From an uncultured Poribacteria bacterium (GTDB lineage: Bacteria; Poribacteria; WGA-4E; WGA-3G): 64,000 nt of DNA. Location: positions 183,178 through 247,177 of the forward strand of contig OY282383.1 of the NCBI GenBank assembly GCA_958295855.1. The letters are read 5' to 3'. This document shows, piece after piece, positions 3,564 to 59,108 of the stretch. Made by a program: the position numbers and the translations under genes. Within the stretch, counting starts at the first letter, position 1; each line of letters starts with the position of its first letter. Under the pieces are notes generated by a model. The model searched no databases. It saw only the letters and a program-made list of their open reading frames with translations, and was not told the origin of the DNA.

Positions 3564-3604
3564 TCCGCGTAATCCGCGTAATCCGCGTAATCCGCGATTC
3601 AGAC
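3564..3604. repeat. CCGCGTAATCCGCG (x3) ATTCAGAC repeat, same family as the Rpn-flanking repeats
   Basis: Direct sequence match to positions 30-76 and 1396-1530. Confidence 0.8.
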
Positions 3605-3610
3605 AATAGA

Positions 3611-3642
3611 GGTCACGGCACACGGAGTGTGCCTACTACCTT
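3611..3642. repeat. Hairpin module (GGTCACGGCACACGGAGTGTGCCTACTAC) overlapping the 3' end of the RM gene
   Basis: Same family as 14592-14702 and 47276-47392. In the gene's frame it encodes VVGTLRVP plus the stop codon. Confidence 0.8.
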
Positions 3643-27176: not shown

Positions 27177-27790
27177 GATAGCAAGCTTTTCGTCATTCCT
27201 TGCGGAGTAATCAGGTTGCAAGACGCATCGCGCAATGCACTGTAGATCTCGTCGGAGGTTTCTGATGCCTTAATTGTTTGTAGGGGCAGTGCCTTGTGCC
27301 TGCCCTTCCCCTCCGAATCGCAACACTTTTACAAAAAAGTTGAATATTCCGCTGACATGTGGTAAAATTCGTATTTTCGTCATTCCTTGCGGAGAATTCA
27401 GGTCGCAAGACGCATCTGGCAATGCACTGTAGATCTCGTCGGAGGTTTCTGATGCCTTAATTGTTTGTAGGGGCAGTGCCTTGTGCCTGCCCTTCCCCTC
27501 CGAATCGCAACACTCTTACAAAAAAGTCGAATATTCCGCTGACATGTGGTAAAATTCGCCTTTTCGTCATTCCTTGCGGAGTAATCAGGTTGCAAGACGC
27601 ATCTGGCGCTGCACTGTAGCTCTCGTCGGAGGTTTCTGATGCCTTAATTGTTTGTAGGGGCAGTGCCTTGTGCCTGCCCTTCCCCTCCGAATCGCAACAC
27701 TTTTACAAAAAAGTTGAATATTCCGCTGACATGTGGTAAAATTTGCGGCGTAATGGCATTAACCCCCTGCAAAGCAGGGGCAAATACCCT
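27177..27790 (+). repeat. Three tandem copies of a composite unit of about 184 bp, then a palindromic element
   Basis: Tandem periodicity starting at about 27177, 27361 and 27545. Module order: TTTTCGTCATTCCTTGCGGAGTAATCAG; CTGTAGATCTCGTCGGAGGTTTC; GGGCAGTGCCTTGTGCCTGCCC; promoter-like TTGAATATTCCGCTGACATGTGGTAAAAT. Confidence 0.9.
27714..27742 (+). promoter_or_regulatory. Promoter-like element TTGAAT, 17-bp spacer, TGgTAAAAT (extended -10); promoter-proximal copy of three
   Basis: Identical elements at about 27346-27374 and 27530-27558. Oriented toward fumC. Confidence 0.5.
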
Positions 27791-29217: not shown

Positions 29218-29396
29218 TTGGTTGCAGGCTGTCGACATACTGCCCATCAGCCCCCCGCACCCCGACACAGGCAACAATGAAAAATTTTTTGTCGTGCCGG
29301 GGGACATGACGAAGCCGAATCTATAATTGGTTGCAGGCTGTCGACATACTGCCCATCAGCCCCCCGCACCCCGACACAGGCAACAATGAAAAATTT
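29181..29396 (+). repeat. Tandem duplication of about 108 bp spanning the fumC stop codon
   Basis: The segment 29181-29289 is repeated almost exactly at 29290-29396. The first copy includes the last 12 codons of fumC. Confidence 0.85.
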
Positions 29397-29399: not shown

Positions 29400-29752
29400 G
29401 ATTTTTCATTTAGGGTAATGCCCCGCAAAGCGGGGAATCACCCTGTCACCTGTGTTGCGACGTGCATTCAGATGTAACCTTAGCCCCAGCGGGGCGACAT
29501 GTGTATAGCCGCGCATGCCGACCCTCCTCCTTAGCCCCAGCGGGGCGACAGGTGCTAAGGGTGCATAAGAAACCTCCGACGACATCTACTGTAGCGGCAG
29601 TGCCTTGTGCCTGCCCATCTACATCGTCAGAACACTCCTGCCAATGGTATTTGCCCCTGCTTTGCAGGGGTTTCATACCAAGTTGTGAATGGCCAATGAA
29701 CAACTTTTTTATTTCTTACTTATGCTGATTACTCCGCAAGGAAAGACAAAAA
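29400..29752. repeat. Mosaic of intergenic repeat modules (palindromic element, GCCCCAGCGGGGC hairpin x2, GGCAGTGCCTTGTGCCTGCC, CTCCGCAAGGAAAGACAAAAA)
   Basis: Module families recur across the window. Confidence 0.8.
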
Positions 29753-32700
29753 TTAGTCATCATCGTCACTTGCGGTATCAAGCGGTTGTCCCTGATAGGC
29801 AACTTCTATGTTCTGGAAGTCGGAGAAGCCGCTTCCCGCTGGGATAAGCCTACCGAGGATGACGTTTTCTTTTAGCCCGAAGAGCCTGTCGGTTTGACCG
29901 CTCACTGCCGCGTCTGTGAGCACTTTGGTCGTCTGCTGGAAGGAGGCCGCTGAGATAAAACTATCTGTGCTCAAGGAGGCTTTGCTGATGCTCTGGAGTA
30001 TGGGTTCTCCTGTGGCGGGTGTGCCGCCTGCGGTGTCGATGGCACTGTTTTGACGCTGGAACTTGTCGCGGGCGACTTCTTCGTTCGGGTAGAAGGCTGT
30101 ATCGCCGGACTCGGTGACGCGTATCTTTGTCAGCATCTGCCGGACGATGGCTTCGATATGCTTGTCGTTGATGACTCTTGCACCGTAGACTTTCTGGACT
30201 TCATCGACAAGGTATGCCCACACGGCTTCTTCGCCTTCGACGGGTACGCCGTTTATGAGGGTACGCCCGATTCTTAAAATATCGTGCGGGTTGAGGAATC
30301 CATCTGTGAGCGGTTGGCCTGCATCTACCCAGTCGCCTTCGGTGACTCGCCGTTTTTCATCAGGGATGGCATAGACTCTGCTGGTATGCCCTTCATCTAT
30401 GATGCGGTATGTGGGTACGCCTGCCTTGGTGCCTACGGCTTGTACGTGTCCCTCAATTTCGGCGATTTCTGCGGCATTTTCTCGCTTGGGACGCCGGGCT
30501 TCAAACAGTTCTGTGACGCGGGGTATGCCTGCTACGATGTCTCGGTTCGCGGTTTTCTCATGCAGTTCTGCGAGGGTGTCTTCTGCATCAATGCTATCCC
30601 CTTCTTCGACGGAGAAGGAGTAACCGAGAGGTATGAGATGCGGCACGTAAGCACCCTGACTGTTCACGATTTCGATATGCATGCGCATGTCGAGCTCGGC
30701 TGTTTCAAAGCCGGCGTATTGTGCAAAAGTTGTCTTGTATGCTTCTTCAGTCAATACCTCGCCGACGGTATGCCCACAATTGGGATGGAAGACATCCGTG
30801 ACGGTGTAGGTTTTCCGCTGGTTCTCCTTCTGTAGCTTGCGGTATTCCTTTTCGCCTAGAATGTGCCCAGGGTCGAACTGAGGGACAGAGGAATCTGTCC
30901 TTTCGTCCCGGGTGACCTGATTGACGCGTTCGACATCAAACGCTTTGTACTGCCGCTGGTATGATCGGTATTCCTTTTCAGTTAACTCGGTTCCGACTTC
31001 CAACTGCAGGTCGGGGTGATGTACACTAACGACGACATATAGACTCGTGAATTTTCCCGAAATTTCGGGATCTTCTTTACGCAACGACTTATACTGGGCT
31101 TCGCTTAAGCGCTGTCGCGATTCGGAGATCGCTCCTACCTCCTCGTAGTAGCGTTGCACTTCAAACCCCTTGTACTGTCGGCGGTGTGCGCTTGACGCTT
31201 TTTGTGTCAACAATTCACCAGGCTGTAGCGGGCACTCGGGGTGATTGACAGCAGTCACGTGATAGAGTCGTTCCGCCTCAAAGGGTCCCATTGTATTAAC
31301 AGCGGAGGAGGCTGTGATACCTGGGAAAGTGGCTCTGAACTGTTTCTCCTCACCATCGCTGAGCAAGTCACCTGGTTTGAGGGTGCAGTCCGGATGATGC
31401 ACATGGATGACGCGGTGCTTCAACTTTTGAACATTGAACCCAGGAAACCGCTTGTGTTCCTTACGTGCCGCGTCTGTTGTTAGCACGTCGCCGACCTTGA
31501 GGGGGAACTCGGGGTGATAGACTGCGGTGACAACATGCTTCGGGGCATCCAATTCTTTAACCTGAAACGCCCGATACTTTAGACGGGCCTCCTCGTAGGC
31601 GCGTTCGGTTAATTCTCTTCCAATCTGATACTCGGCTGGATCCAGCCCCGAGTTTGCGTCTCCTGTTATCTCAGTATGCATAACGTAGACAGGCTTTGAC
31701 TCCAAGTCAAAGGGGGTAAGCCACGAGGCGATGTCTGAAGCCGACACTTCCTCTCCAACCTCATAAGGGAAGTCTGCCCGAGTGCGCTCGGTTATGCGGT
31801 AGACACGTTCGAAGTGAGAATCCCGGGCGGAGTGGGTATGTTCCCCGCTTTGCGGGGAGAAGGGTTTTGCCCTGCTTTGCAGGGAATTACCCTCTTCACC
31901 CTTTTCAGACTCGCCTCCCTGGGTCGCGCCGACTGAGGCAAGTTCTGTCTCTGTAAAGAGCTGCCCTGTCTCTGAATCTCGGGAAAGCCATTCACCATCA
32001 AACCCTGTGTGCATCTTGGCCTTCAACTCATCTGCTTTTTCGAGTGTGAGCAGCTCCCTCGGTGTAACAGCAATGTCGGGGTGAAGCACTTGCGTCACAC
32101 GGTATTTCTGCGTTACAAAGCGGCCGAAGCCGTATTGCTTCCGGGCCTTGTCATATTGTGCCTGTGACAGCCGGGCGCCTTCCTGAAGGTGGCAGGCATG
32201 CTCCGATACAGCTGCCTCACTTAACTTTTCAACATGTTGAAAAAACGTCTCTTCAATCTCAGGCTCAAGTGAATCAATCTCACTGACGAGGGTTTCACTT
32301 GGTTGACGTACATTGCCGTATTTTTCTGTAAATTGTCGATACTCATCAGAGCTGCTGAACTTTTGGTGGCCTTCTCCGGGTTGTTCCGCATGGCAACCAA
32401 TGCAGAGTGCCGCCAGGTCCCTGGGTTCGTTATGCTTCGTTCCCCGCCGATGGTGGACATGGAGAAACTGTTTATCATCCTTAAGGGCTACACCACACTG
32501 CTCGCACTGCCAACCGGCCCTATCACGATATTTCTCTGAGAGAAACTTCCAAGCGTCTGATGAATAATCAAAATGCTGTCCGAGAACGCTATAACCGTTA
32601 TTTACTTTAGCACGCTCCGATACAGCAGTTACCTCATACTGCCAGGTCTCGGTCTCAAAGCCTTTATAACGTTGTGCGTTTTCAGTGTACTGCTTCTCAC

Positions 32701-35700
32701 TCAACAACTCACCTGGGAGCAATGGGCACTCAGGGTGGTTAACCTGGGTGACCTTGTAAGCAGGTGCATCAAGCTTTGCGCTAGAGGGATGAACCCCCTG
32801 CTTTGCAGCGGCAGACTGACCGATTGTGTTCATCATATCTACTTTGTTGTCGGTTTCCCATGCAGAAGATGGACTGTCGGAGCCGATGGCTATCCAGAGA
32901 TTTCCTTCTTGGCGCACTGTGCTGCCGGGGCGGAAATCGCGGAACCGCACGGTTCCCTTAACTTTCGCAAGAACTTTGCGCTGGCGCGCTTCTGAAATGG
33001 CCTCAACAGCCCCACCGGTGTGGAACGTCCGCATCGTTAGCTGCGTGCCGGGTTCACCAATGGATTGTGCAGCGATGATACCGATGGCTTCGCCGACATT
33101 GACAAGATTGTTGGTCGTCAAATCAATGCCGTAGCACTTTGAACAGACACCTTCGTCGGCTTGACAGGTGAGTACGGAACGCACTTTTACGACTTTGATG
33201 CGCGCGGCCTCAATCTGTGTGGCTTCTTCCTCGGATATCAATTGCTCGCTGGCTTTAAGCACTTGGCCTGTATCTGGGTGGATGATGTCTTCGGCGGCGG
33301 TTCGCCCTCTGATTTTAAATGCAAGGCTGCCGCCTTCAGTTGTAAACTTCTGAATGCTGTTCAGTGTCTTGCAATCTTCAGTGGTAACGCGGACATCTTG
33401 GGCAACATCTACTAACTTCCGGGTTAGATACCCGGATGCGGCGGTTTTCATTGCGGTATCTACTAAGCCTTTGCGCGAGCCGTAGGTGGAGTTGAAATAG
33501 TCTAACACATCTAAGCCTTCGCGATAGGAGGCGGTTATCGGTGTAGAGAGAATGTTGTTGCTCTGATCGGATTTCAAGCCGACAATTGCACTAATTTGCA
33601 TAAATGGGTTCTTCCGCGCGCGCGCTCCACTATCCGCCATAATATGCACTGGACTGAAACCTTTGACGGTTTCAGCGCCTATCTCTACGCCATCAGCATC
33701 TACGTTTGGATGAATCTTACGCGAGTCGCCGCGTTCAACGAGTGATGTCTCTAATTCGGGTAAGGCGGAGAACATCCTTTTCTCAACCTGTTCAATCGCT
33801 TCGAGCCAGATGCGAATTCGCTCATTCTCTAACTCGCCTGTGTCTGTAGCAGAGGTTGTCGCAAGGAGGTTATCCACTTCGGACTGGGCTTTGCTCACTA
33901 AAGCATCCCGGTTGTCGGGCCTGAGGTAATCTGTTATGCAGGGCGATATGCCGCTCAGGGTTGCATAGTGGAAGGCAAGTTTTTGGATTTCCTCAAGCAT
34001 GTTGACTGTAACACGCGTTCCTAATTCGTTGAAACAGTCGTAGACTATCTTGGATAACTCGCGTCCGCTGGCTTCGGCGTTGAAAAAAGGCACCTGCTGC
34101 CGGGAATGCTCGTCTATCCACGCATCCTCGGACGAACTTCCTTTGATTTTCTTGAGTTTATCTGGCAGTACTTCGTTGAAAATAACTCTGCCTACTGTCG
34201 TGAGTATGGGGCTGGCTGTGGCACGCGGCCTGCTACTTTCGTGCTTGCTACTTTCCCCAAAAAAGAGTTGGAGGCTATCGTGTAGTTTGAGTTGGCCGGC
34301 TGCGTGCGCGGCGATAACTTCTTCTGTATTTGAATAGCGACGGTGGTACCAAGGTTTTTGGCGGAGCTCATCCAGTCGCGATTCGGAGATGGCTCCTACC
34401 GATTGCGCGATAAACTCATGCAACAACTTTGCATCCTCAGCATGTCCCGGCAGTTCCTTCGTCAGGAAACTCGGCCCTAGCACCATGTCAAGCTCCGGTA
34501 CTGCAATTGGACCGCCGTGGGATGGCTTGAGGATATTATGACTGCTGAGCATTAGCAGCTTTGCCTCTGCCTGTGCCTCTACTGTGAGTGGCACATGCAC
34601 TGCCATCTGGTCGCCGTCAAAATCGGCGTTGAATGCCTTACACACAAGGGGAGGTATCCGTATCGATTTGCCTTCTACTAACACTGGCAGAAATGCCTGA
34701 ATGCCAAGCCGATGCAACGTGGGTGGGCGATTCAGTAACACGGGATGGTCGGCTATGACTTCCTCTAAGACTTCCCAGACAGGTGAATTGGACTCCACAT
34801 GCTCGGCGATGTGCTTCGCACGTTTTATCGTCTGCGTATAGTTATACGCTTGCAGCCTCTCGATAATAAATGGCTTGAACAATTCTACGGCCATTCGCTT
34901 GGGCAAACCGCATTGGTGGAGTCCCAGTTCGGGGCCGACGACGATGACGCTTCGCCCAGAGTAATCGACGCGTTTTCCGAGCAGATTCTGACGGAAGCGC
35001 CCGACTTTGCCTTTGAGGATATCGGAGAGTGACTTGAGCGGTCGGTTGCCAGGGCCGGCAACACGCCTGCCGTGCCGCCCGTTGTCAAAGAAGGCATCAA
35101 CGGCTTCTTGTAACATCCGTTTTTCGTTGCGCAAAATGACTTCGGGGGAACGGAGCTGTATTAACTTACGCAGCCGGTTGTTACGATTGATGACGCGGCG
35201 ATACAGATCGTTCAAGTCGCTTGTGGCAAAACGCCCGCCTTCGAGGGAAACAAGGGGCCGTAAGTCCGGGGGAATGACGGGTATCACATCCATAATCATC
35301 CACTCGGGGCGCTGTTCAGATGCGGCAAAGTCAGACAACTGTTTGAGCTGTTTGGATATCTTGAGCTTTTTCTGATGGCTTGTTGTTTCCGAAAGCAGTT
35401 CGGTGAGTTTCTCTTTCTCTGCCTGCAGGTCGATGCTGTTCAGAATCTCAGAAATGACTTCGGCGCCAGTCCCTGCGCGAAATTGACCGGGGTACTGGTG
35501 TTTCGCTTGCTCGTATTCTAATTCTGTTAGGACCTGACGCGGCTGCAGCGGACAGTCCGGGTCGCTGACGGATACAACAACAAAGGCTTCAAAATAGATG
35601 ATGCGTTCTACTTGGCGTGAGGAGAGATTACAAAAGGTGCCGATTCGTGACGGTATGCCTTTGAAGAACCAGATGTGGGAAACTGGGGCGGCGAGCTGGA

Positions 35701-36058
35701 TATAACCGAGGCGCTGCCTGCGTACGCGCTGCTGCGTTACCTCAACTCCACACCGGTCGCATATCACTCCCTTGTGCTTTATCCGTTTATATTTCCCACA
35801 ACTACACTCAAAGTCTTTTTGCGGGCCGAAGATGGCTTCGCAGAATAGCCCTTCCGGTTCTGGCCGGAGGGAGCGATAATTAATGGTTTCTGCCTTCCTC
35901 ACTTCGCCGCAGTTACACCTTCCCATCTCCGGACAGATAAAGGGTTCTCTTGTGGATTGGGATGTGCTACGACGCTTACAACAGGTTTGCTTGGCTAATG
36001 CTTTTATCTCCTGGGGTGAGGCTATTTTTATCGAAATACTGTCAAACGCTGTTTTCAT
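29753..36058 (-). CDS. rpoC: DNA-directed RNA polymerase subunit beta' with a very large trigger-loop insertion (SI3-like, about 800 aa) containing SBHM-type repeats, an HNH motif and in-frame repeat elements
   Basis: 2101 aa. Canonical beta' blocks: NADFDGDQM and MRTFHTGGA, then an insertion, then GIPRVTELFEARRP. RBS AGGAA within the upstream repeat. Confidence 0.95.
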   Translation of the reverse strand: MKTAFDSISIKIASPQEIKALAKQTCCKRRSTSQSTREPFICPEMGRCNCGEVRKAETINYRSLRPEPEGLFCEAIFGPQKDFECSCGKYKRIKHKGVICDRCGVEVTQQRVRRQRLGYIQLAAPVSHIWFFKGIPSRIGTFCNLSSRQVERIIYFEAFVVVSVSDPDCPLQPRQVLTELEYEQAKHQYPGQFRAGTGAEVISEILNSIDLQAEKEKLTELLSETTSHQKKLKISKQLKQLSDFAASEQRPEWMIMDVIPVIPPDLRPLVSLEGGRFATSDLNDLYRRVINRNNRLRKLIQLRSPEVILRNEKRMLQEAVDAFFDNGRHGRRVAGPGNRPLKSLSDILKGKVGRFRQNLLGKRVDYSGRSVIVVGPELGLHQCGLPKRMAVELFKPFIIERLQAYNYTQTIKRAKHIAEHVESNSPVWEVLEEVIADHPVLLNRPPTLHRLGIQAFLPVLVEGKSIRIPPLVCKAFNADFDGDQMAVHVPLTVEAQAEAKLLMLSSHNILKPSHGGPIAVPELDMVLGPSFLTKELPGHAEDAKLLHEFIAQSVGAISESRLDELRQKPWYHRRYSNTEEVIAAHAAGQLKLHDSLQLFFGESSKHESSRPRATASPILTTVGRVIFNEVLPDKLKKIKGSSSEDAWIDEHSRQQVPFFNAEASGRELSKIVYDCFNELGTRVTVNMLEEIQKLAFHYATLSGISPCITDYLRPDNRDALVSKAQSEVDNLLATTSATDTGELENERIRIWLEAIEQVEKRMFSALPELETSLVERGDSRKIHPNVDADGVEIGAETVKGFSPVHIMADSGARARKNPFMQISAIVGLKSDQSNNILSTPITASYREGLDVLDYFNSTYGSRKGLVDTAMKTAASGYLTRKLVDVAQDVRVTTEDCKTLNSIQKFTTEGGSLAFKIRGRTAAEDIIHPDTGQVLKASEQLISEEEATQIEAARIKVVKVRSVLTCQADEGVCSKCYGIDLTTNNLVNVGEAIGIIAAQSIGEPGTQLTMRTFHTGGAVEAISEARQRKVLAKVKGTVRFRDFRPGSTVRQEGNLWIAIGSDSPSSAWETDNKVDMMNTIGQSAAAKQGVHPSSAKLDAPAYKVTQVNHPECPLLPGELLSEKQYTENAQRYKGFETETWQYEVTAVSERAKVNNGYSVLGQHFDYSSDAWKFLSEKYRDRAGWQCEQCGVALKDDKQFLHVHHRRGTKHNEPRDLAALCIGCHAEQPGEGHQKFSSSDEYRQFTEKYGNVRQPSETLVSEIDSLEPEIEETFFQHVEKLSEAAVSEHACHLQEGARLSQAQYDKARKQYGFGRFVTQKYRVTQVLHPDIAVTPRELLTLEKADELKAKMHTGFDGEWLSRDSETGQLFTETELASVGATQGGESEKGEEGNSLQSRAKPFSPQSGEHTHSARDSHFERVYRITERTRADFPYEVGEEVSASDIASWLTPFDLESKPVYVMHTEITGDANSGLDPAEYQIGRELTERAYEEARLKYRAFQVKELDAPKHVVTAVYHPEFPLKVGDVLTTDAARKEHKRFPGFNVQKLKHRVIHVHHPDCTLKPGDLLSDGEEKQFRATFPGITASSAVNTMGPFEAERLYHVTAVNHPECPLQPGELLTQKASSAHRRQYKGFEVQRYYEEVGAISESRQRLSEAQYKSLRKEDPEISGKFTSLYVVVSVHHPDLQLEVGTELTEKEYRSYQRQYKAFDVERVNQVTRDERTDSSVPQFDPGHILGEKEYRKLQKENQRKTYTVTDVFHPNCGHTVGEVLTEEAYKTTFAQYAGFETAELDMRMHIEIVNSQGAYVPHLIPLGYSFSVEEGDSIDAEDTLAELHEKTANRDIVAGIPRVTELFEARRPKRENAAEIAEIEGHVQAVGTKAGVPTYRIIDEGHTSRVYAIPDEKRRVTEGDWVDAGQPLTDGFLNPHDILRIGRTLINGVPVEGEEAVWAYLVDEVQKVYGARVINDKHIEAIVRQMLTKIRVTESGDTAFYPNEEVARDKFQRQNSAIDTAGGTPATGEPILQSISKASLSTDSFISAASFQQTTKVLTDAAVSGQTDRLFGLKENVILGRLIPAGSGFSDFQNIEVAYQGQPLDTASDDDD
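32380..32515 (-). other. HNH nuclease motif embedded in the rpoC trigger-loop insertion
   Basis: Motif: CEQCG, then LHVHHRRG, then N, then LCIGCH, spaced as in HNH domains. No intein splice-block signatures nearby. Confidence 0.6.
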
Positions 36059-36462
36059 ATTTTCGCTATTCCTTGCGGTGTAATCAGGTTGTAAGGTTCA
36101 TCGAGGGTTACACTGTAGATCTCGCTGGAGGTTTTCGCTATTCCTTGCGGAGTAATCAGGTTTTCGCTATTCCTTGCGGTGTAATCAGGTTGTAAGGTTC
36201 ATCGAGGGTTACACTGTAGATCTCGCTGGAGGTTTTCGCTAAAAGGGTTCGAAGGTGCCAAGAATTTTGACACCTTGTTCCTGTCTGTAATTTGCGGAGA
36301 ATTCAGCATGGGCAGGCACAAGGCACTGCCCCTACAGATACAAGCCTTGCATCAAAAACCTCCGACGAGATCTCTAATGCGATGACAACTACATAATGCC
36401 AATGGTATTTGCCCCTGCTTTGCAGGGGTTTTATACCAATTCGAGTTCTCCGCAAGGAATGA
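36059..36462. repeat. rpoB-rpoC intergenic mosaic: two copies of TTTTCGCTATTCCTTGCGGTGTAATCAGGTTGTAAGGTTCATCGAGGGTTACACTGTAGATCTCGCTGGAGG, plus GGGCAGGCACAAGGCACTGCCCCTACAG and a palindromic element
   Basis: Direct reading of the sequence. Provides the rpoC SD and the rpoB stop codon. Confidence 0.85.
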
Positions 36463-39400
36463 CTAAAGGTCTGAGTCGCGATTGAGTGTCACGTTCAGAC
36501 CAAGGCTCTGGAGTTCTCGCACGAGCACGTTAAACGATTCGGGCGTGCCGGGCGGGTTTGGGTTCAGCCCCTTAACTATGGATTCATAGATTTCCGATCT
36601 GCCTGCCACGTCGTCCGATTTGAGGGTGAGCATCTCCTGGAGCGTATGCGCAGCGCCATAGGCTTCAAGTGCCCACACTTCCATTTCACCGAGTCGCTGG
36701 CCGCCATGTTGCGCCTTACCGCCCAGAGGTTGCTGGGTGACAAGCGAGTAAGGGCCTGTGGAGCGCGCATGCATCTTGTCTGCTACAAGATGGTTCAGTT
36801 TAAGGAAATAGACGTAGCCGACTGTGACTTCTTGGGCAAAGGGTTCACCTGTCCTGCCATCATAAAGTACGCTTTTCCCTGTCTTTTTACTGCGTTCGGG
36901 GAGGTTCGTTTTTCCGAGCAGTTCAAAGATTTCAGTCTCTGTTGCTCCGTCAAATACGGGGGATTCTGCGCGTATGCCTAATGCGTGGCACGCCCATCCG
37001 AGGTGAATTTCTAAGATTTGCGCGACATTCATTCGTGATGGGACGCCTAAGGGGTTCAGCACGATTTCAACGGGTGTGCCATCTGGCATATAGGGCATAT
37101 CTTCAGCTGGCAGGATTTTTGCCACAACGCCTTTATTGCCATAACGGCCTGCCATTTTATCGCCAACGGAAATGGGACGTTTACTCGCGATATAAACTTT
37201 GACGCGTTTGATAACACCGGGTTTGAGTTCATCTCCCATCTCCAATTGCTTGAGGGCGCGTTCTTTCTCCTCTGTGTAGGCGGCTATCCTGCCTTGCGCC
37301 ATCTCCTCAACGCGGCGAATGTGTTCCATTGCGGCAGCATCCGTTACGCAAACGGATGATAACGCTATGCCAGGTGTGTCTAATAGCTCAGCTGTCACTG
37401 TGTCACCCGCAGCAAACGACGTTGGGGCAGCACTTTGTTCGGAATTCCCGCCCTGCCCCTTTGCCTCTTCACTGCTTTGCTTCCCGCCCGGTTTCCCATC
37501 ATGGGCAACCAGGAGGATAGCCTCCGCGTTGGTATGTTCCCCACTTTGCTTCCCGCCCTGCCCCTTTGCCTCTTCACCCTTTTCCCCATCGTGCCTAACC
37601 TGTGCCACTACAGGCAATGCAAGTTCACAACCAAGGAGCATGTTGCGTATTTCTTCGTCCTTCCGGTGGCGTATGGATGCGATGTGCGTCCTCCACGTCT
37701 CCTCGCTCTGCTTACGTTTGGATTCATAGCGCAATTCTTCAATTCTTGATGCGCCTGTTTCCGAACGTGTCCAGCCGCCGCGGCGTTGCAATCCATCTGG
37801 CTTTCGGGAAAACACTTTGACATCAATTACTATGCCTTCAACGCCGGGGCGGATGTAGGTGGAGGCATCGCGGACATCTCGTGCTTTTTCGCCGAAGATG
37901 GCGTGCAGCAGTTTTTCTTCGGGGCCATACTCACTTTCGCCTTTGGGCGTAATTTTTCCCACGAGGATACTGCCGGCACTGACAACACTGCCAACGCGGA
38001 TGATGCCTTCCTCATCAAGCTGCAAAAGGCGTTGCTCGCTCATGTTCGGAATGTCGCGCGTTATCTCCTCTGGGCCCACCTTCGTTTCGCGTGCCTCTAC
38101 TTCGACTTCTTCAATATGAATAGAGGTAAAGGTGTCCTTGCGGATGAGGGTTTCACTAATGAGGATAGAGTCCTCATAGTTGTGCCCGCCCCAGGGCATA
38201 TAGGCGCACAAGATATTTCTGCCGAGGGCGAGTTCACCTCCGTCGGTGGATGTGCCGTCGGCAATAACATCGCCTGCTTGCACTTTATCGCCTACAGAAA
38301 CGATTGGATGCTGGTGGATACAGGTGCCACTGTTACTGCGCTTGAAAGTCTGGAGTTTGTACTGGTCGTATCCCATTTCGCTAAATCCATGCTCGCCGGT
38401 GTCGGTATGCAGCACTTCGCCGGTGTGTATGAGGATTTCGTCAGCGGAGATACTTGCGACGGTGCCGCTGCGGATGGCGGTTCGGAGGGCTCCGGAGTCC
38501 AGTGCGGCGCGGGTTTCCATGCCTGTAGCTACAAGAGGGGCTTCCGGACGGATGAGGGGGACGGCTTGGCGTTGGTGGTTGGCTCCCATCAATGCGCGGT
38601 TCGCGTCTTCGTGCTCGAGGAACGGAACAAGGGAGGCAGAAACGCCAACTATCTGTTGCGGCGCGATGCCAACATAGTCAATTTCAGTGGATTTCGTTTC
38701 TTTGAATTCTATGACGTCGCCCTCTTTGGCATCGTTCCAGCGTCGCATGGCACGGACAGAATAGCCATGGCGGTTTTTCTTTCCTGCTTTATGGAAAGCA
38801 TCTGCGGATGCAATGGTACAGCCCAGCTCTGCATCTGCAGTCAAATACTCAATCCGGTCAGTGAGCTTACCCTCAACAATGACTTGATAGGGCGTTTCCA
38901 AGAACCCGTAGCGATTGACGCGTGCGAATGTAGCGAGCGATACAATCAGCCCGATTGAGGGCCCTTCTGGGGTTTCAAGCGGACATACACGCCCGAAATG
39001 CGTTTCGTGAACGTCGCGGACAGCTGCGGTTGCCCTGTCGCGATGTAGTCCGCCGGGCCCGATTGCGGAGATGCGGCGTTTGTGCGTCAACTCATCCAGG
39101 GGATTGATTTGTTGCATAAACTGCGAGAGTTGGTTAGAGCCAAAAAACTCACGGAGTGCCATCATGAGTGGTTTGGGGTTCACCAATGCGCCGGGTGTTG
39201 CTTTGGCGCGGTCCTTGAGGATATCGACAGCACTGAGGCGTTCGCGTGTCGTTCTACGGATTTGGAATAATCCCATTCTGAATTGGTTTTCTAGCAGTTC
39301 CCCGATAACTCTGACGCGCCGATTTTCGAGATTGTCCTGGTCGTCCTTGGGTACAAGTTTGTTCTGCACCTGTATGAGGTATGCCAGTGTTGCGGTGATA

Positions 39401-41013
39401 TCCTCTCCGGTGCGGCGGAGTGTGCGGACGCTTTCGTCTGGCATTGTCCATTTCCCCTGCGTGCGTGCTGCGGTATATCCATCAAGCGTGCGGGGTGTTC
39501 CGTCGGGTACCTCTCCATAAATAGGTAGTTCTCCCAATTTCTGATTGAGTTTGTATCTGCCGACAACGCCGAGGTCGTAGCGTTGTGGGTCGAAGAGTAG
39601 CCAATCGAGTTGTCGTTGTGCATTCTCTAGGGTAGCGGAATCCCCCGGTCTGAGGGTTCGGAAGATCTCCAGTCGTGCGGCGTCGCCTAGGGTATGCTGG
39701 GAGGCGTATTCAGATTCCCGGTCTTTTTCAAGGGTGTTGCGTAAAAATCGGATACGTTGGCAATCCTCTGGATGGAGGACGGTGAGTGCTTGGATGCCGG
39801 CTTCGGTGAGGCGGTCCAACTCAGTCTGGGTGAGTAGGGTATTGGCTGTGATGAGGCATTCACCAGTGTCGGGTGAAATGACTGGTTCAGCACAGACGCG
39901 CTCGACCTGGTTCTGAATATCCGTGGGTTGCAGGGGTGTAGCCGTAAACATTGCGTCTCCGTCATGGTAACCGTATCTGGCTCTCGCTTCTAGGTATTCG
40001 GCTTGGGTTAAGATTTGCCCGGGAGTCAACTCACATCCGGAGTTTTGAATAGCCAGGATGCGGTGGAGAGGTTCGGTCTGAAAGCCCTTGGATTTTCTGC
40101 GGGAGCTTGCGCGTTCTTTCTCGGTTATAATTTGTCCCTGCTCCAAGGGGCAGTCTGCGTCTGTGACTTCGGTAACGCGATGGCATTTTTCGGTGTCAAT
40201 CCCGTTATATTGCTTGCGTGCGTGCCTCAGTTCAGTGCTCGTTAGCAGTTGCCCGGGCGTGAGGGGACATTTGGCAAGGGAGACTTCTGTGACGCGCCAG
40301 CCTTGAAGTACGAGGCGTTCGGTTTTGGCATAAAGTTTCAAGATGTCGGCATCAGTTTCCCAGCCGAGGGCGCGGAGGAGTACGGTTGCTGGGAGTTTCT
40401 TGCGCTTGTCCATGCGGACATAGATTTGCTCCTTGGTATCCACCTCAAACTCTACCCATGCGCCGCGGTAAGGGATAATTTGTGCTGTGGGGCTTCGTTC
40501 GGTTGTCAAAGCTTTGTCTTTGGCACTCTCGAGGAAGATAACGCCCGGTGAGCGATGCAACTGACTGACTATGACTCTTTCGCTGCCATTAATAATAAAA
40601 CTTCCGCTCTCCGTCATCAATGGGACTTCTCCGAGATAGACGTCGGATTCTCGGATATCGACGACGTGGGGTTCGGTTGCATCCGGGTCTGCCTCGCGTA
40701 TGACGAGCATGACGCGTGCAGTAAGGGATACCTGATAACTCATCCCGCGTGCGACGCATTCTTGTAAGGTATATTTCGGCGTACCCAGGGAGTAGTGGAC
40801 AAATTCAAGGGTGTTGACTTCTGAGAAGTCCCGGATAGGGAACACCTCACGAAAAACGGCTTCAAGCCCATAATTTTCGCGTTTTTGGCCCTTGGTGGGT
40901 TCGACATGTCGCTGTAAGAAGTCTGCATAAGCTCGCTGTTGGGTTTCTATAAGATTCGGAAGCGGGGTTTGAACCTGTGTTTTGGCAAAAGAGATCCTGG
41001 GTTGTTTGTTCAC
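36463..41013 (-). CDS. rpoB: DNA-directed RNA polymerase subunit beta with lineage-specific insertions (BBM2/SBHM-like repeats in the N-terminal third; low-complexity tandem repeat in the SI2 region)
   Basis: ORF 36463..41166. Start moved to the GTG at 41011-41013 (AAGGAGA 7 nt upstream) because the ORF's upstream extension runs through a repeat element. Canonical beta blocks present, for example GDKMAGRYGNKGVVAKI. Confidence 0.9.
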   Translation of the reverse strand: MNKQPRISFAKTQVQTPLPNLIETQQRAYADFLQRHVEPTKGQKRENYGLEAVFREVFPIRDFSEVNTLEFVHYSLGTPKYTLQECVARGMSYQVSLTARVMLVIREADPDATEPHVVDIRESDVYLGEVPLMTESGSFIINGSERVIVSQLHRSPGVIFLESAKDKALTTERSPTAQIIPYRGAWVEFEVDTKEQIYVRMDKRKKLPATVLLRALGWETDADILKLYAKTERLVLQGWRVTEVSLAKCPLTPGQLLTSTELRHARKQYNGIDTEKCHRVTEVTDADCPLEQGQIITEKERASSRRKSKGFQTEPLHRILAIQNSGCELTPGQILTQAEYLEARARYGYHDGDAMFTATPLQPTDIQNQVERVCAEPVISPDTGECLITANTLLTQTELDRLTEAGIQALTVLHPEDCQRIRFLRNTLEKDRESEYASQHTLGDAARLEIFRTLRPGDSATLENAQRQLDWLLFDPQRYDLGVVGRYKLNQKLGELPIYGEVPDGTPRTLDGYTAARTQGKWTMPDESVRTLRRTGEDITATLAYLIQVQNKLVPKDDQDNLENRRVRVIGELLENQFRMGLFQIRRTTRERLSAVDILKDRAKATPGALVNPKPLMMALREFFGSNQLSQFMQQINPLDELTHKRRISAIGPGGLHRDRATAAVRDVHETHFGRVCPLETPEGPSIGLIVSLATFARVNRYGFLETPYQVIVEGKLTDRIEYLTADAELGCTIASADAFHKAGKKNRHGYSVRAMRRWNDAKEGDVIEFKETKSTEIDYVGIAPQQIVGVSASLVPFLEHEDANRALMGANHQRQAVPLIRPEAPLVATGMETRAALDSGALRTAIRSGTVASISADEILIHTGEVLHTDTGEHGFSEMGYDQYKLQTFKRSNSGTCIHQHPIVSVGDKVQAGDVIADGTSTDGGELALGRNILCAYMPWGGHNYEDSILISETLIRKDTFTSIHIEEVEVEARETKVGPEEITRDIPNMSEQRLLQLDEEGIIRVGSVVSAGSILVGKITPKGESEYGPEEKLLHAIFGEKARDVRDASTYIRPGVEGIVIDVKVFSRKPDGLQRRGGWTRSETGASRIEELRYESKRKQSEETWRTHIASIRHRKDEEIRNMLLGCELALPVVAQVRHDGEKGEEAKGQGGKQSGEHTNAEAILLVAHDGKPGGKQSSEEAKGQGGNSEQSAAPTSFAAGDTVTAELLDTPGIALSSVCVTDAAAMEHIRRVEEMAQGRIAAYTEEKERALKQLEMGDELKPGVIKRVKVYIASKRPISVGDKMAGRYGNKGVVAKILPAEDMPYMPDGTPVEIVLNPLGVPSRMNVAQILEIHLGWACHALGIRAESPVFDGATETEIFELLGKTNLPERSKKTGKSVLYDGRTGEPFAQEVTVGYVYFLKLNHLVADKMHARSTGPYSLVTQQPLGGKAQHGGQRLGEMEVWALEAYGAAHTLQEMLTLKSDDVAGRSEIYESIVKGLNPNPPGTPESFNVLVRELQSLGLNVTLNRDSDL

Positions 41014-41039
41014 TTGATGCGGTCTCCTTTTGGTACCGG

Positions 41040-41739
41040 ACTCTGGTGGTGGGCAGGCACAAGGCACTGCCCGTACGGCGCAATGAAATCCCGAGAATAA
41101 AAAAGTTGTTTGCTTTTCGCGCACAACTTGGCTTGCAAGCTTCGCCAAAAAGTGGTGGGCAGGCACAAGGCACTGCCCCTACGGACGCGCCGCCTTTTAA
41201 CCTATTGGCAATAGCATAACAGAATATTATACACTATAATTAGGGGAAAGTCAAGAAAAAATGCATTTTTGTTATTCCTTGCGGAGTAATCAGCATAAGT
41301 AAGAAATAAAAAAGTTGTTCATAAAAATTCACAACTTGGTATGAAACCCCTGCAAAGCAGGGGCAAATACCATTGGCAAGACACATCCAGCAATGCACTG
41401 TAGCTCTCGTTGGAGGTTTCTTATGCAACCTTTCGGGCCAATGGCTGCCCGCCCACCCGTTTCCGTATTGTGGCTAAAAAAGGGGGTGCTTGTTTTTGAC
41501 GTTAATCAAGCTAGGGCATTTAGTTTTCAGTAGTTTTGAGTAAGGGGCGTGGTTGGGTGAGGATTAAGAATTTTCGTCTATGCCTAGTATTTTGATTGGA
41601 TTATGTGGTGTTAATGGCATTGGAGCTCTCGTCGGAGGTTTTGGTCTATGTCTAGTATAATGTGGTATAAAGGTTGACACACCACGTTAACTTGGTATAC
41701 TGTATTAAGGTACGGAAACCCCGTGCTACGGGAGACAAA
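41040..41739. repeat. Repeat-dense intergenic region (GGGCAGGCACAAGGCACTGCCC x2, palindromic element, CCCGCCCACCCGTTTCCG, GGGCATTTAGTTTTCAG, and others)
   Basis: Module families shared with other intergenic regions. Confidence 0.8.
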
Positions 41740-42270
41740 ATGGGAACAATTACAGTACCAGCACCTGTCAAAGCTATCATCGGTGTGTTGACAGGGGACG
41801 CGCTTCTTCTGCCAACTGTCTATCAGGAATTGACAGCTCAGCTCGGGCACATTGACTTCACGAGTGAACTTTTGCCTTTCACCAGCACAACCTATTATGA
41901 AGCTGAGATGGGACGAGGGCTCCAACGGCAGTTTATTAGCTTTGAAAGGCTCATCGATGCAGGGACATTGGCAGAGATGAAACTGTTTACAAATCAGGTG
42001 GAGCAGGCGTTTGCAGAAGAGAAAACCTCGCGACGGCGCGTCAATTTAGATGCAGGTTATGTGTGCTCAGCGAAGTTGGTACTCGCCTCAACGAAAGATC
42101 ACGCGCACCGTATCTACCTCCGCGCCGGTATCTATGCGGAAATGACGCTCCGATTCTATCGCAAAACCTTCCAACCGTGGGAATGGAGTTATCCTGACTA
42201 CCGTTCCCCGGACTACATCGCTATTTTTAATCACATTCGCACAATCTATAGGGAGCAACTCAACGCATGA
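41740..42270 (+). CDS. Hypothetical protein (possibly DUF4416-like)
   Basis: ORF 41674..42270. Start moved to MGTITVPAP (AAAATG). The stop overlaps the next gene's ATG (ATGA). Confidence 0.35.
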   Translation: MGTITVPAPVKAIIGVLTGDALLLPTVYQELTAQLGHIDFTSELLPFTSTTYYEAEMGRGLQRQFISFERLIDAGTLAEMKLFTNQVEQAFAEEKTSRRRVNLDAGYVCSAKLVLASTKDHAHRIYLRAGIYAEMTLRFYRKTFQPWEWSYPDYRSPDYIAIFNHIRTIYREQLNA

Positions 42271-43574
42271 ACAGATATTATGAGAGAAACCTCACCGCTA
42301 GTCCCAGTGACTCGGCTGGAAGACAAGAAGGGTGGAAGAAGGGAAAAAACACCGCCCCCCAACCTTACTGTCTTCCATACTGTCTGCCATTTTTCCAATC
42401 TTCAAAAATACTAGTCTGTTGCATCATTTGTGCTTTTTGGTTAGTGGTATTTACCCCTGCTTTGCAGGGGCAGATACCCGGTCAAGGTTTTGCCGGGGCG
42501 CAATCGACTGAGTCACCCCGAGCGCGGGCGCGCGAGCTCGGCATCTATATCGGGAGCCTTCCTACCGGTGAGTACAACGCAATCACCGACGTGCCCGGGG
42601 TCAAAGTAGGACACGTCACCCTGAAGCAGGGGGAGTCAATTCGCACTGGTGTCACCGCTATCCTTCCGCGCGATGATATTTGGGAAGCGCGTCTGTTTGG
42701 CGCAGCACATACCATTCATGGCAACGGTGAAGCCACCGGCATCGCCCGAATTAATCAAGCCGGGTGGATTGAGTCCCCGATTTTGTTGACAAATACCCTG
42801 AGTGTCGGGGCTGTTCACGATGGTGTTGTCCGGTACATTGTCAAGCGGTATCCGGACAATAACATTGTGCTGCCGATTGTGGCAGAGTGTTACGATGGCG
42901 GCTTGAACGACATCAGCGGGCTCCATGTAACTGCACAGCATGCCATTGAATCCATTGAGAACGCCACCTCCGGTAAGGTAGCAGAGGGCAGTGTAGGCGG
43001 CGGTACAGGTATGCGATGCTACGGGTTCAAAGCCGGTATCGGTACTGCCTCGCGGGTACTCCCACCAAACAGGGGCGGATGGAAAGTCGGGGTACTCGTC
43101 AACGCAAACGGCGGACGACGACATCAGTTACGCATTGATGGCGTGCCGGTGGGTAAGGTACTTGATGATGCCCAGCAGAACCCAGGCAGGGACGGCTCGT
43201 TTATCATCGTTATCGCGACGAACGCGCCGTTAACGCATCGGCAGTTGAAACAGCTGGCGATGCGTGCAACGCACGGCCTCGCCCGCACAGGCACACCAAG
43301 CACAGATGGCAGTGGTGAGTTCGTTATCGCGTTTTCTACCGCCAATATTTTTCCACGCGGCACAGAAACAGGTACCTTTCACATCCAGATGGTAGTCAAC
43401 TCACGCTTGAATTCTCTCTTTCAAGCTGTCATTGAGGCAACAGAGGAGGCTATTGTGAATTCAATGACGATGGCAACCACAACCACTGGCCGCAACGGCA
43501 GAACAATGCACGCGATTCCATTGGATGGGTTGCAACAGGTGATGCAGCAGTTTTCGTCATTCCTTGCGGAGTAA
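42267..43574 (+). CDS. Peptidase family S58 / P1 (DmpA-like L-aminopeptidase / D-Ala esterase-amidase family)
   Basis: 435 aa with a DmpA/ArgJ-like fold signature. A palindromic element sits inside the N-terminal hydrophobic region. The C-terminal FSSFLAE* is encoded by a repeat module. Confidence 0.55.
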   Translation: MNRYYERNLTASPSDSAGRQEGWKKGKNTAPQPYCLPYCLPFFQSSKILVCCIICAFWLVVFTPALQGQIPGQGFAGAQSTESPRARARELGIYIGSLPTGEYNAITDVPGVKVGHVTLKQGESIRTGVTAILPRDDIWEARLFGAAHTIHGNGEATGIARINQAGWIESPILLTNTLSVGAVHDGVVRYIVKRYPDNNIVLPIVAECYDGGLNDISGLHVTAQHAIESIENATSGKVAEGSVGGGTGMRCYGFKAGIGTASRVLPPNRGGWKVGVLVNANGGRRHQLRIDGVPVGKVLDDAQQNPGRDGSFIIVIATNAPLTHRQLKQLAMRATHGLARTGTPSTDGSGEFVIAFSTANIFPRGTETGTFHIQMVVNSRLNSLFQAVIEATEEAIVNSMTMATTTTGRNGRTMHAIPLDGLQQVMQQFSSFLAE

Positions 43575-43826
43575 TCAGCATGGGTATGAAACCCCTGCTT
43601 TGCAGGGGCAAATACCATTGGCAGGATAGTTCTGACGGGCAGGCACAAGGCACTGCCCCTACAGTAGATCTCGTCGGAGGTTTCTGATGCAAGTTTTTTA
43701 ATGCTTAATTAGCAGGGAACACACTACAACTCATGTCGGAGGTTTCTGACGCAATGTTCGTAGGGGTGGTGCCTTGTGCCTACCCACATACTGGAGTATA
43801 TCGCGATTCGGACATCGCTCCTACGT
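43555..43826. repeat. Intergenic mosaic (TTTTCGTCATTCCTTGCGGAGTAATCAG, palindromic element, GGGCAGGCACAAGGCACTGCCCCTACAG x2, GATTCGGACATCGCTCCTACG)
   Basis: Module families shared across the window. Confidence 0.85.
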
Positions 43827-45953
43827 CTACCTCTGTCCGCCGGGGGCAAGTGCCGCCGGTACCACCTCATGATGTGAAAACTCAAGCGTGAACGCCCCGC
43901 GCCCCTGCGTCATTGAGCGGAGCTGGGTTGTATATTGGAACGTTTTTGCTAACGGGATAAAAGCACTGACAAAGTTGAACGCACCTTGCGTACCGCTTTC
44001 GTTAATCTGGGCGCGGCGTGCATTCAGGTCGCCGATAACCTTTCCGACGTGTTCATCTGGTGCCGTGATATGTATCCGCATAATCGGTTCAAGGAGCAGG
44101 GGTTTCGCCGTTCTGACCGCGTTTTCAAAGGCGAGCACAGCCGCCGCCTCAAAGGCGACTTCTGAGGAATCTGTTGAATGACAGGAACCACCGGTGAGCG
44201 TTACCTTGATGTCTTGCAGTGGGTATCCGATGAGCGCACCGCTTCCCATCGCACCTTTGAGCGCGTTCTGAATGGCAGGAATGTATTGCCGTGGAATCTG
44301 CGTCTCATCCGTCTCATCCGCAAACTGAAACCCGCCGTCTCGTTCCAATGGGGCAACAGTGAGTACCACATCGCCATAAATGCCTTCCTCATCTGTTTTA
44401 TGGATGTGTGTGCCTCGCGCTTCAGCAGGCGTGCTGATAGTCTCCCGATATGCCACCTGTAGTTTGCTCACGCGCGCGTTCACACCAAACTCGCGGCGCA
44501 TCCGGTCGGTGAGAATTTCTAGGTGGAGTTCGCCCATCCCAGAGATAATCCGTTGCCCCGTCTCTTTATCAATACCGACGGTGAACGTCGGGTCTTCGTC
44601 CATTAATTTTTGGAGTGTCTCCTCCAGTGTGTCTGCATCACTGGCGCGTTCAGGTTCAATTGCGATGGAGATAACGGGCTGTGGAAAAGTGATGGATTCT
44701 AACAGGATAGGATGCTTCGCATCTGCCAATGTATCGCCTGTTTTCGTATCCCGAAGCCCGACGAGGGCAACGATGTCTCCTGCGTAAGCGGCATCACAAA
44801 CCGCCTCTTTGTTGGCATGCATCTGTAGAATGCGGTTCACCCGCTCCCGTTTGCCGGAACCGACGTTATAGATGACTTCCCCACGTTTCAGGGTGCCTGA
44901 ATAGATACGGCAATAGACCAGTTTGTCCACAGTGGGGTGGCTTGCGACTTTAAAGGCTAACGCTGCAAACGGGGCAGTATCATCTGAGTAGCGGGTGGTA
45001 TTTGCCCCCGCTTTGCGGGGCAGATTCTTGGTGGCTTTATTGTGGCTGGAGGTTGTTCTCACAGAAGAGGTATTTGGCACTTCACCTTCAATTGGGGGTA
45101 GGTCGACAGGCGAAGGCAGAAAATCAATGATTGCATCAAGCAGGGGTTGAACGCCCCGATTTTTGAGGGAACTTCCGCATAATACAGGGACTAACGTTCC
45201 CTTCAAAGTAGCAGTACGAATGCCTGCCACTAACTCGGCGGAGGTTATCTCCTGGCCCTCCAAGTATTTTTCAAGCAACGCGTCCTCTTCAACAACGACG
45301 CTCTCAAAAAGGGTTTCTCGGGCGAGTGCCACTTCGGCGTGAAACTCATGTGGAATTTCGGATTCTTGATAGGTCTGCCCGAGGTTTGCCGCATCCCAAT
45401 GCATCGCCTTCTGTCTTACCAGGTCAACAACCCCTGCGAAATCGGTTCCCTCACCAATTGGCAATTGGAGGGGCACCGGATTGGTGCCGAGTCGCTCCTT
45501 CATCATCTCAAGCACGCGAACGAAATTGGCACCGACCCTATCCATCTTATTGACGAAGATGATGCGCGGTACATCGTAGCGTTCAGCTTGATGCCAGACA
45601 GTTTCTGACTGTGGCTCCACACCGCCAACAGCACAAAAAAGTGCAACAGCACCATCTAACACGCGCAAGGAACGTTCCACTTCTACTGTGAAATCGACAT
45701 GGCCGGGCGTATCAATCAGGTGAATCGCGTGTTCTCTCCAGAAACAGGTTGTTGCGGCGGCGGTAATCGTCACCCCGCGTTCTCGTTCTTGCGCCATCCA
45801 ATCCATTTCTGCAGTGCCGTCATCTACTGCACCAATCTTATGCTTTTTGCCAGTATAGAAGAGAATTCGTTCGGTTGTGGTTGTTTTGCCTGCATCGATG
45901 TGCGCTGTAATACCGATGTTGCGCACGTTTTCAATAGAATATTCGCGTGCCAT
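43827..45953 (-). CDS. fusA: Elongation factor G (fusA-type; could be a paralog, as no rpsL/rpsG precede it)
   Basis: 708 aa with canonical G-domain motifs: [21 protein letters not shown]. Carries an in-frame insertion from a palindromic element in the G' region. Confidence 0.9.
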
Positions 45954-59075: not shown

Positions 59076-59108
59076 AGAACTAGGCAATGACAAAAGATTA
59101 GGAACGAC

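Follow-up and report, generated by a model that had tools for sequence, protein, structure and literature searches.

Introduction

Palindromic repeats carried in frame by intact genes were described in Rickettsia by Ogata et al. (2000/2002) as the Rickettsia palindromic elements (RPEs), which measure around 100–150 bp and have a conserved encoded peptide (PMC10969869, PMC3733652). A second type, the intragenic repetitive extragenic palindromes (REPs) tagged with GTAG or CGTC, was found in Opitutus, Thauera and others as stem-loops of 20–40 bp in coding regions, more than half of them dimers encoding 20–30 amino acids, and a neutral place in loops and linkers was proposed for them (Di Nocera et al. 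2013, PMC3733652). The REPINs, formed by two REPs in inverted orientation, are extragenic only and are mobilised by the RAYT tyrosine transposases (Bertels & Rainey 2011, PMC3116915; Nunvar et al. 2010, PMC2817692). The subject of the present work is a stretch of 64,000 nucleotides from an uncultured Poribacteria bacterium (contig OY282383.1 of assembly GCA_958295855.1, positions 183,178 to 247,177; called the window from here on), whose rpoB gene, for the β subunit of RNA polymerase (RNAP), holds a low-complexity insert that is absent from its orthologs. We propose that this lineage-specific, in-frame insert at the tip of the SI2 region of β is a likely descendant, decayed and duplicated, of a double-hairpin unit that is still intact in the neighbouring rpoC gene.

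Short repeats fill nearly all the intergenic spaces of the window, and the commonest of them is an imperfect palindrome of around 34 nt, GGTAT-nnn-CCCC(T)GC-WWW-GC(A)GGGG-nnn-ATACC, whose canonical copies begin with GGTAT or GGCAT and end with ATACC. The unit measures around 31–35 nt, or 66 nt as a dimer, and more than 20 copies are present, most of them intergenic; strict copies number 16 in the window versus none in around 800 kb of sequence taken from 34 related Poribacteria loci. JGI metagenome contigs, scanned for exact matches, contained no instance of the hairpin consensus, and an Rfam scan of the window recovered only a tRNA, in such a way that neither the hairpin family nor the rpoB insert has an Rfam counterpart.

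Like the RPEs, the hairpins of the window are dispersed palindromes found between genes and also in frame in intact, often essential genes (PMC10969869, PMC3733652), where they add a short peptide at fold-compatible positions and are absent from the orthologs of relatives. They differ from the RPEs in their size, in the use of three reading frames instead of a conserved peptide, in the host, which is a Poribacteria-type bacterium with a large genome and not a reduced intracellular alphaproteobacterium, and, in the case of the rpoB copy, in the lack of a palindrome. No shared sequence with the RPEs would be expected, and the size of the unit (31–35 nt versus around 100–150 bp) sets the family apart from them, which argues against membership. 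The rpoC insert matches the format of an intragenic REP dimer, with two hairpins and 22 aa, whereas the window family lacks the GTAG/CGTC tag; other modules of the window, and a REP found in rpoB of other Poribacteria, do carry GTAG. Two short palindromes per unit, a high copy number in one lineage and intergenic mosaic arrays are common to REPINs and to this family, but the latter is found inside genes, no RAYT gene was seen in the window when 30 further open reading frames (ORFs) were scanned with Pfam, and its mobility is putative. The rpoC insert and its decayed form in rpoB thus work like RPEs and intragenic REPs: they share with them the intergenic dispersal, the intact frame and host gene and the absence from orthologs, and, by prediction only (pLDDT, the predicted local distance difference test score, of around 30), the location in a fold-compatible surface loop or linker. 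They are members of neither family, because they have no GTAG/CGTC tag, are much shorter than RPEs and are accompanied by no RAYT gene in the window.

Results

An in-frame insert at the tip of SI2

The rpoB ORF (36463-41166, − strand, 1567 codons) contains the six Pfam domains Rpb2_1/2/3/45/6/7 and matches its orthologs; as these align only from residue ~47–57, the GTG at 41013 is probably the true start. Downstream of it, on the same strand, the rpoC ORF (29753-36058, − strand, 2101 aa, Pfam Rpb1_1-5) encodes a β′ subunit whose trigger-loop region carries a very large insertion. The closest relatives by rpoB are Candidatus Poribacteria metagenome-assembled genomes from a species-representative genome collection, with 63–70% amino-acid identity, and none closer was present among the species-representative genomes or in a collection of 5.8 billion proteins. 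Exact-protein look-ups found neither rpoB nor elongation factor G (EF-G) on record, the rpoB query, taken from the ORF start, being probably too long and the EF-G start ordinary. With the C-terminal 473 aa of rpoB as the protein query, no relative above 89% identity appeared, and none had the insert.

Alignment with 36 rpoB orthologs delimited a window-specific, low-complexity insert, EKGEEAKGQGGKQSGEHTNAEAILLVAHDGKPGGKQSSEEAKGQGGNSEQSA, at approximately 37429-37584 (− strand), in the variable loop directly before the conserved F-A-x-A-G-D-x-L-T-A-E. It is absent from all 36 orthologs, the nearest of which is only ~70% identical. Read on the − strand within rpoB, positions 37441-37580 give the peptide GEEAKGQGGKQSGEHTNAEAILLVAHDGKPGGKQSSEEAKGQGGNS, and the reading frame stays open throughout the insert, with all Pfam domains kept.

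We take SI2, also named β-i9, to correspond to residues 938-1040 of E. coli β. When the protein was compared by phmmer with the chains of the Protein Data Bank, query residues 171-298 aligned to E. coli β 993-1120, and the N-terminal conserved block aligned just before the start of SI2 in the β chains 7ye1 and 6j9e, an alignment obtained for those chains but not shown for E. coli. The two blocks enclose the insert, placing it between ~937 and ~993 of E. coli β, at a site bounded by the conserved motifs VxDVxVFxR and GD(E/D)LxPGVxK(x)VKVY. An AlphaFold model built with 55 homologs predicts confident long helices at residues ~1134-1177 and ~1277-1310 of the rpoB ORF (pLDDT 86–96), and for the segment between them (~1194-1245) it gives a pLDDT of ~30 and no secondary structure. 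On this model, the insert is probably a disordered surface loop, rich in Gly, Lys, Gln and Glu, at the tip of the SI2 helical hairpin. Both the position in β and the pair of long helices with a variable tip are those of SI2; the domain itself is old and structured, whereas the window insert is a recent addition to its tip, predicted to be unstructured.

The loop that precedes F-A-x-A-G-D-x-L-T-A-E varies in length and sequence in all Poribacteria. In the closest clade, a separate insertion of ~330 residues lies around 15 codons further on; it is absent from the window and from the clade with 63% identity. A scar of this insertion was considered as a source of the window insert and dropped, as it lies ~15 codons further downstream, after AE(V/L)LD.

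The double hairpin of rpoC

The reference for the comparison is an in-frame insert in rpoC, GNSLQSRAKPFSPQSGEHTHSA (31826-31891, − strand), 66 nt long and containing two hairpins, both of them intact (CCCCGCTTTGCGGGG and CCCTGCTTTGCAGGG). Compared codon by codon with the closest orthologs, it represents exactly 66 extra nucleotides (22 aa): where the window has K G E E GNSLQSRAKPFSPQSGEHTHSA R D S H F E R V Y R I T E, the locus L040 has S G E E R D A N F K R V Y R I T E, in such a way that cutting out exactly these 66 nt produces a gapless match to the orthologs of L040 and L009. The left boundary was taken from this comparison, as a MAFFT alignment of the rpoC DNA misplaced it. The insert folds with −19.2 kcal/mol (z = −4.6, as DNA); the palindrome of the family also folds well, with z = −4.1 for the copy at 29645-29685. 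A family profile built from 14 canonical intergenic hairpin copies and searched by nhmmer recognised it with E = 4e-4 and 0.013. The insert is absent from the other Poribacteria rpoC genes (33/33) and from 35 rpoC orthologs, and a large protein database searched with its peptide yielded no candidate. On these grounds, membership of the rpoC insert in the hairpin family is genuine.

Kinship between the two inserts

On the + strand, the rpoB stretch reads GGTATGTTCCCCACTTTGCTTCCCGCCCTGCCCC from 37531, and its first 19 nt match rpoC 31835-31853 at 18/19 positions, where 100 shuffles gave an expectation of 0 matches. Colinear with this 19-mer there is a second block of 16/16 identical nucleotides, CCTCTTCACCCTTTTC, common to 37569-37584 and 31891-31906. 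In coding sense (− strand) it reads GAAAAGGGTGAAGAGG, encodes EKGEE and is identical to the left flank of the rpoC insert, outside the canonical hairpin; it was found nowhere else in the window. A blastn comparison of the 171-nt rpoB stretch with all other parts of the window, in both orientations, gave precisely these as its two top matches (16/16, E = 0.002; 18/19, E = 0.008); both fall in the rpoC insert, inside a single target of 72 nt, and they are colinear and share the strand. The gapped local score between rpoB 37520-37605 and rpoC 31825-31915 was 55. Two thousand dinucleotide-preserving shuffles gave a mean of 16.6 and a maximum of 34.5. Among 2946 other 86-nt stretches taken from the two strands of the window, the highest score was 36, and the top-scoring ones were almost all canonical hairpin copies. 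Both shared blocks are in the same reading frame in the two genes, where they encode EKGEE and (Q)SGEHT. These data support that, within the 64 kb, the rpoC insert has no closer relative than the rpoB segment.

That two G/A-rich, low-complexity coding stretches of separate origin came to resemble each other by chance could be argued from the purine-rich and internally repetitive coding strand, from the lack of a significant match to the profile of the canonical family, and from the marginal result obtained with the second rpoB repeat unit alone against rpoC (76/2000 shuffles; p ~0.04). Such a coincidence is extremely improbable, as 0 of the 2000 shuffles and 0 of the 2946 window stretches reach the observed score (p < 0.0005), the two best matches are colinear, in the same strand and frame within the 72-nt target, and the synonymous positions are identical across EKGEE.

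Several points of the original prediction, which was made from the sequence alone, were confirmed by these comparisons: the in-frame low-complexity peptide of rpoB, its location in SI2, the + strand DNA quoted for it, and the presence of SGEHT in frame in both genes. The 16/16 block had escaped it. The alignment that it named as a possible refutation, one with similarity at the level of chance, gave instead a similarity far above that of shuffles and window stretches, and the ortholog comparison that it called for did reveal an indel at this site.

Loss of the palindrome and internal repeats

What rpoB retains of hairpin 1 is an outer arm, the C-rich stem arm and the loop (GGTATGTTCCCCACTTTGC in + strand reading; 37531-37549, in the − strand gene), the stretch that matches rpoC at 18/19, with the G-rich partner arm missing. 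One outer arm is present (GGTATGTT, 37531-37538) and its partner is absent, and the inner stem-loop consists of the C-rich arm and loop only (CCCCACTTTGC, 37539-37549). No complementary arm or inverted repeat was detected in 37380-37640, and folding of the stretch gave a minimum free energy (MFE) of 0 with z = +1.5, with no hairpin left. The four GCAAAG hexamers (hairpin loop plus first stem bases) of the 4.7-kb rpoB all fall within 37459-37569.

The insert is also internally repetitive. An exact 28-nt direct repeat, TTCCCGCCCTGCCCCTTTGCCTCTTCAC, occupies 37445-37472 and 37550-37577, with a start-to-start distance of 105 nt (35 codons, in frame) and 77 nt of separation, so the copies are not head to tail. 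In coding sense, copy 1 (37550-37577, − strand) reads GTGAAGAGGCAAAGGGGCAGGGCGGGAA and encodes EEAKGQGG, and copy 2 (37445-37472, − strand) follows it downstream. Another exact repeat, 14 nt long (GGCGGGAAGCAAAG in coding sense; 37475-37488 and 37544-37557, − strand), is interleaved with the first one, which indicates nested small duplications. The two units are alike over ~42 nt when gaps are allowed, with a score of 58.5 versus a shuffle maximum of 40.5. The exact-match scan of JGI contigs gave 0 matches to the 28-mer.

Judged from the sequence, the rpoC-type dimer seems to survive as two complementary parts, one in each rpoB unit. Unit 1 corresponds to its right end, GCAAAGTGGGGAACATACC (18/19), and unit 2 to a weak, possibly degenerate left half (37415-37452, − strand), where GGGAATTCCGAACAAAG matches rpoC GGTAATTCCCTGCAAAG at 13/17 positions in the same frame (GNSxQS; p ~0.04). 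Each of these parts is preceded by GTGAAGAGG plus CAAAGGGGCAGGGCG.

A role for the insert, as a new contact surface or as a regulatory mRNA element maintained by selection, would be in line with the large and recurrent insertions of the SI2 region in Poribacteria, among them the ~330 extra residues of the closest clade a few codons downstream, and with the maintenance of the frame through several rearrangements. We consider it unlikely: the insert has no homolog in 5.8 billion proteins or in 34 related genomes, it is predicted to be disordered, it has neither nucleic-acid structure nor an Rfam match, and its composition is typical of slippage products.

Given a repeat-dense genome, probably metagenome-assembled, and no second assembly found, a repeat-induced misassembly or a binning error could in principle have put element-like sequence in rpoB. 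The ORF is nevertheless open over its 1567 codons with the domains in order, the insert is a multiple of three in a loop that has a variable length in every relative, and its sequence is that of a decayed derivative, whereas a collapse or a chimera would give a clean copy of the repeat, all of which makes such an artefact very improbable.

Other palindromic repeats in frame

The hairpin family was found in frame at three further places of the window, and all three reading frames are used. In the EF-G gene (43827-45953, − strand), a hairpin at 44996-45021 lies within a 21-residue insert located, with respect to T. thermophilus EF-G, at residues 300/301 (nhmmer E = 4e-5). A second rpoC site, QSAAAKQGVHPS, comprises 32786-32813 and 32855-32887 and falls in insertions specific to the window (21 and 11 aa), which none of the 33 Poribacteria orthologs has; the family profile gave a further rpoC value of E = 7.5e-4. 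The third place is VVSAPQSGVNTF (26070-26101), 12 codons before the stop of a class II aldolase-like ORF (26031-27116, − strand), with E = 1.2e-4.

The five in-frame hairpins located in hydrophilic loops all show CAAAG in the coding sense, and the single CTTTG copy (VVFTPALQGQIP, 42445-42478, in the + strand ORF 42267-43574 of a peptidase S58) is in a hydrophobic N-terminal stretch, which could represent a signal peptide or precede the true start; the sample is too small for this orientation trend to be significant.

In the rpoB SI2 region of the loci L001, L006, L022 and L028, a different, GTAG-tagged stem-loop, GTAGGAGGGGTTTnnAACCCCGAT, is in frame and encodes ESGL[KQ]T[PS]PT (L006 13427-13498; L028 13337 and 13645; L001 13622; L022 13627 and 13717). 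This family is intergenic in L008, L015, L019, L020 and L021. In L006 and L028 it occupies the very loop of the window insert, with a tandem duplicate at 36 nt in L006. This SI2 loop thus holds GTAG-tagged repeats in some lineages and a GGTAT-type relic in the window, supporting that the site is a recurrent host of palindromic repeats. A screen for 14-mers shared between rpoB or rpoC and the rest of all the Poribacteria loci returned only noise.

The β′ insertion in the trigger-loop region contains a 138-aa module (32204-32617, − strand; rpoC aa ~1148-1285) with the pattern C-x2-C ... HVHH ... C-x2-C-H and a weak Pfam match to HNH (E = 0.045 in the window and 0.006 in L040). At the same site, rpoC of L036 has instead a PD-(D/E)XK domain, REase_MTES_1575 (E = 2.9e-20), and nothing was found there in the other 31 Poribacteria rpoC genes. 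In both forms a nuclease-like domain is fused in frame into β′, possibly as the relic of a homing-type element.

Surroundings of the two genes

The first 51 codons of the rpoB ORF (41014-41166) have no ortholog match, and two copies of a repeat, GGGCAGGCACAAGGCACTG (41036-41069 and 41142-41175), are found there, probably in the 5′ leader of rpoB. Upstream (41167-42270), the usual rplJ-rplL are missing, and the neighbour is a divergent DUF4416 gene, with ~500 nt of repeats in between. A further window-specific insertion of 22 aa in rpoB, GEVPDGTPRTLDGYTAARTQGK (39451-39516), has no obvious similarity to the repeats.

Tandem arrays of mosaic structure occupy intergenic positions, with units of 187 nt x3, 111 nt x3, 109 nt x2 (exact) and 101 nt x2 (27186-27743, 58748-59080, 29179-29396, 36055-36241). 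They join the hairpin with other modules, namely TTTTCGTCATTCCTTGCGGAGTAATCAG, ACTGTAGATCTCGTCGGAGGTTTCTGATGC and the GTAG-tagged GTAGGGGCAGTGCCTTGTGCCTGCCC, and border rpoB and rpoC on every side. Set against the asymmetric flanks TTG / TTTC, some copies of the hairpin carry the loop TTT and others AAA (29645-29680 versus 43584-43617, and other copies), a pattern that looks as if the loop flipped independently of the arms. Arrays of 9-nt units (TCCGCGTAA / TCCGTGTAA; 21-56, 1392-1427 and 3555-3599) flank the YhgA-like gene at 101-1243 and also precede a Type ISP restriction-modification gene (3613-6720).

Discussion

The homology to the rpoC insert, the preserved frame, the loss of the palindrome, the internal repeats, the absence from orthologs and the location in SI2 were all observed directly. 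A sequence of events can be proposed from them, in which DNA of the same double-hairpin unit that is intact in rpoC, 5.7 kb away, would have given rise to an in-frame insert of ~46 codons in the SI2 tip loop. The G-rich arm (on the + strand) of each rpoB hairpin would then have been lost, in such a way that neither the DNA nor the mRNA would fold any longer, and the remainder would have grown by small in-frame duplications, represented by the 28-nt repeat 105 nt apart and the 14-nt repeat, most likely through replication slippage. If translated, the insert would yield peptides such as GQGGKQSGEHTNAEAILLVAHDGKPGGK, presumably tolerated because SI2 is a permissive, lineage-variable part of β.

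Several points weigh against this interpretation. The profile of canonical hairpins did not detect the rpoB segment (E = 29 and 49), so that its status as an independently recognisable family member was rejected; its membership would be only transitive, through its kinship with rpoC, and would hang on one pairwise relationship. The original prediction of a degenerate copy of the palindromic element holds therefore in what concerns the kinship (score of 55), and fails as regards recognition by the profile and folding (MFE of 0). Likewise, its proposal that both large subunits took up the same family stands for rpoC, by profile and folding, and for rpoB only by way of rpoC, from which the segment may have been copied. 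The center of the rpoB segment aligns to rpoC in two different gapped ways, and the order of deletion and duplication is not recoverable from them. The flanks outside the 28-mer are not significantly alike (p = 0.13–0.21), which leaves a larger duplication of 90–105 nt unproven. A clean tandem duplication of that size, including V(R/A)HDG, is suggested by the peptide and finds no significant support in these DNA flanks; what remains of the predicted tandem duplication is the exact 28-nt block (~42 nt with gaps), and the block that had been reported twice within 100 nt does exist, although it is longer, with 28 nt, and spaced by 105 nt. No transposase able to move the hairpin family was seen in the window, where the only transposase found in the scan of ORFs is the putative YhgA-like one (101-1243). 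With the nearest ortholog at ~70% identity and no closer genome in the collections searched, there is neither an empty-site allele nor a date for the indel. Finally, that the insert would be selectively near-neutral debris of selfish DNA is a proposal in which both neutrality and disorder are predicted.

Regarding its arrival, the route that we tentatively prefer is a copy from rpoC to rpoB by template switching or gene conversion, which would have been primed on a native microhomology, (A)AGGGTGA(A/T)G. In element-less orthologs, the rpoC site reads AGT GGT GAA GAA CGC (SGEE) and the rpoB site GAT GGC ACT AAA GGT GAT GCT (TKGD). As related ortholog sequence exists at both sites, part of the 16-mer looks native in both genes, and, as it is also outside the canonical hairpin, a templated copy between the genes is favoured; the two sites are 5.7 kb apart in the same orientation. 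A somewhat less probable but still plausible route is that a composite mobile unit, formed by the 16-mer, hairpin 2 and hairpin 1, entered rpoB and rpoC separately by transposition, the 16-mer belonging then to the element and not to the host. The similarity begins exactly at the 16-mer and stops exactly at the canonical ...ATACC terminus in both genes, GAAGAGGGT pairs at 7/9 positions with ACCCTTCTC across hairpin 2, lengthening its stem, the repeats of this genome are mosaics of several modules, and the in-frame copies in several unrelated genes imply that the family lands in coding DNA on its own. Against such separate entries, the 16-mer is found nowhere else in the 64 kb despite the more than 20 hairpin copies, and SGEE and TKGD already present in element-less orthologs make it partly host-like. 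Under the preferred route of copying, the shared 16-mer points to sequence exchange between the neighbouring essential genes rpoB and rpoC.

This kind of event is known from Rickettsia, and it has not been reported for the Poribacteria lineage or for rpoB, rpoC or EF-G: no published description of such repeats in Poribacteria was found, and in the part of the supplementary files of PMC3733652 that was accessible, the decorated proteins include neither RNAP subunits nor EF-G. In the window, three stages coincide within 64 kb, with an intact double hairpin (rpoC), weakened ones (EF-G and the second rpoC site) and a duplicated relic without hairpin (rpoB), in such a way that selfish hairpin repeats appear to enter, and then to decay in, the two largest RNAP subunits and EF-G. 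This provides a concrete model for the birth of short disordered insertions in conserved proteins, and may show the onset of lineage-specific RNAP insertions. It has also a practical side, as rpoB, rpoC and fusA are used as phylogenetic markers, and inserts of this kind can upset alignments and primer sites.

In a wider sense, it is possible, though rather doubtful at present, that the lineage-specific insertions of Poribacteria RNAP, and of other core proteins such as EF-G, are being seeded and enlarged by repeated in-frame capture of palindromes, followed by hairpin loss and slippage. The idea comes from the SI2 loop, which holds a GGTAT-type relic here and a GTAG-tagged REP, once in tandem, in other lineages, and from the β′ insertion, where one shared site holds nuclease-like modules, HNH-like in the window and L040 and PD-(D/E)XK in L036. 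If general, such a process would let the birth of "dispensable" RNAP domains from selfish DNA be observed directly.

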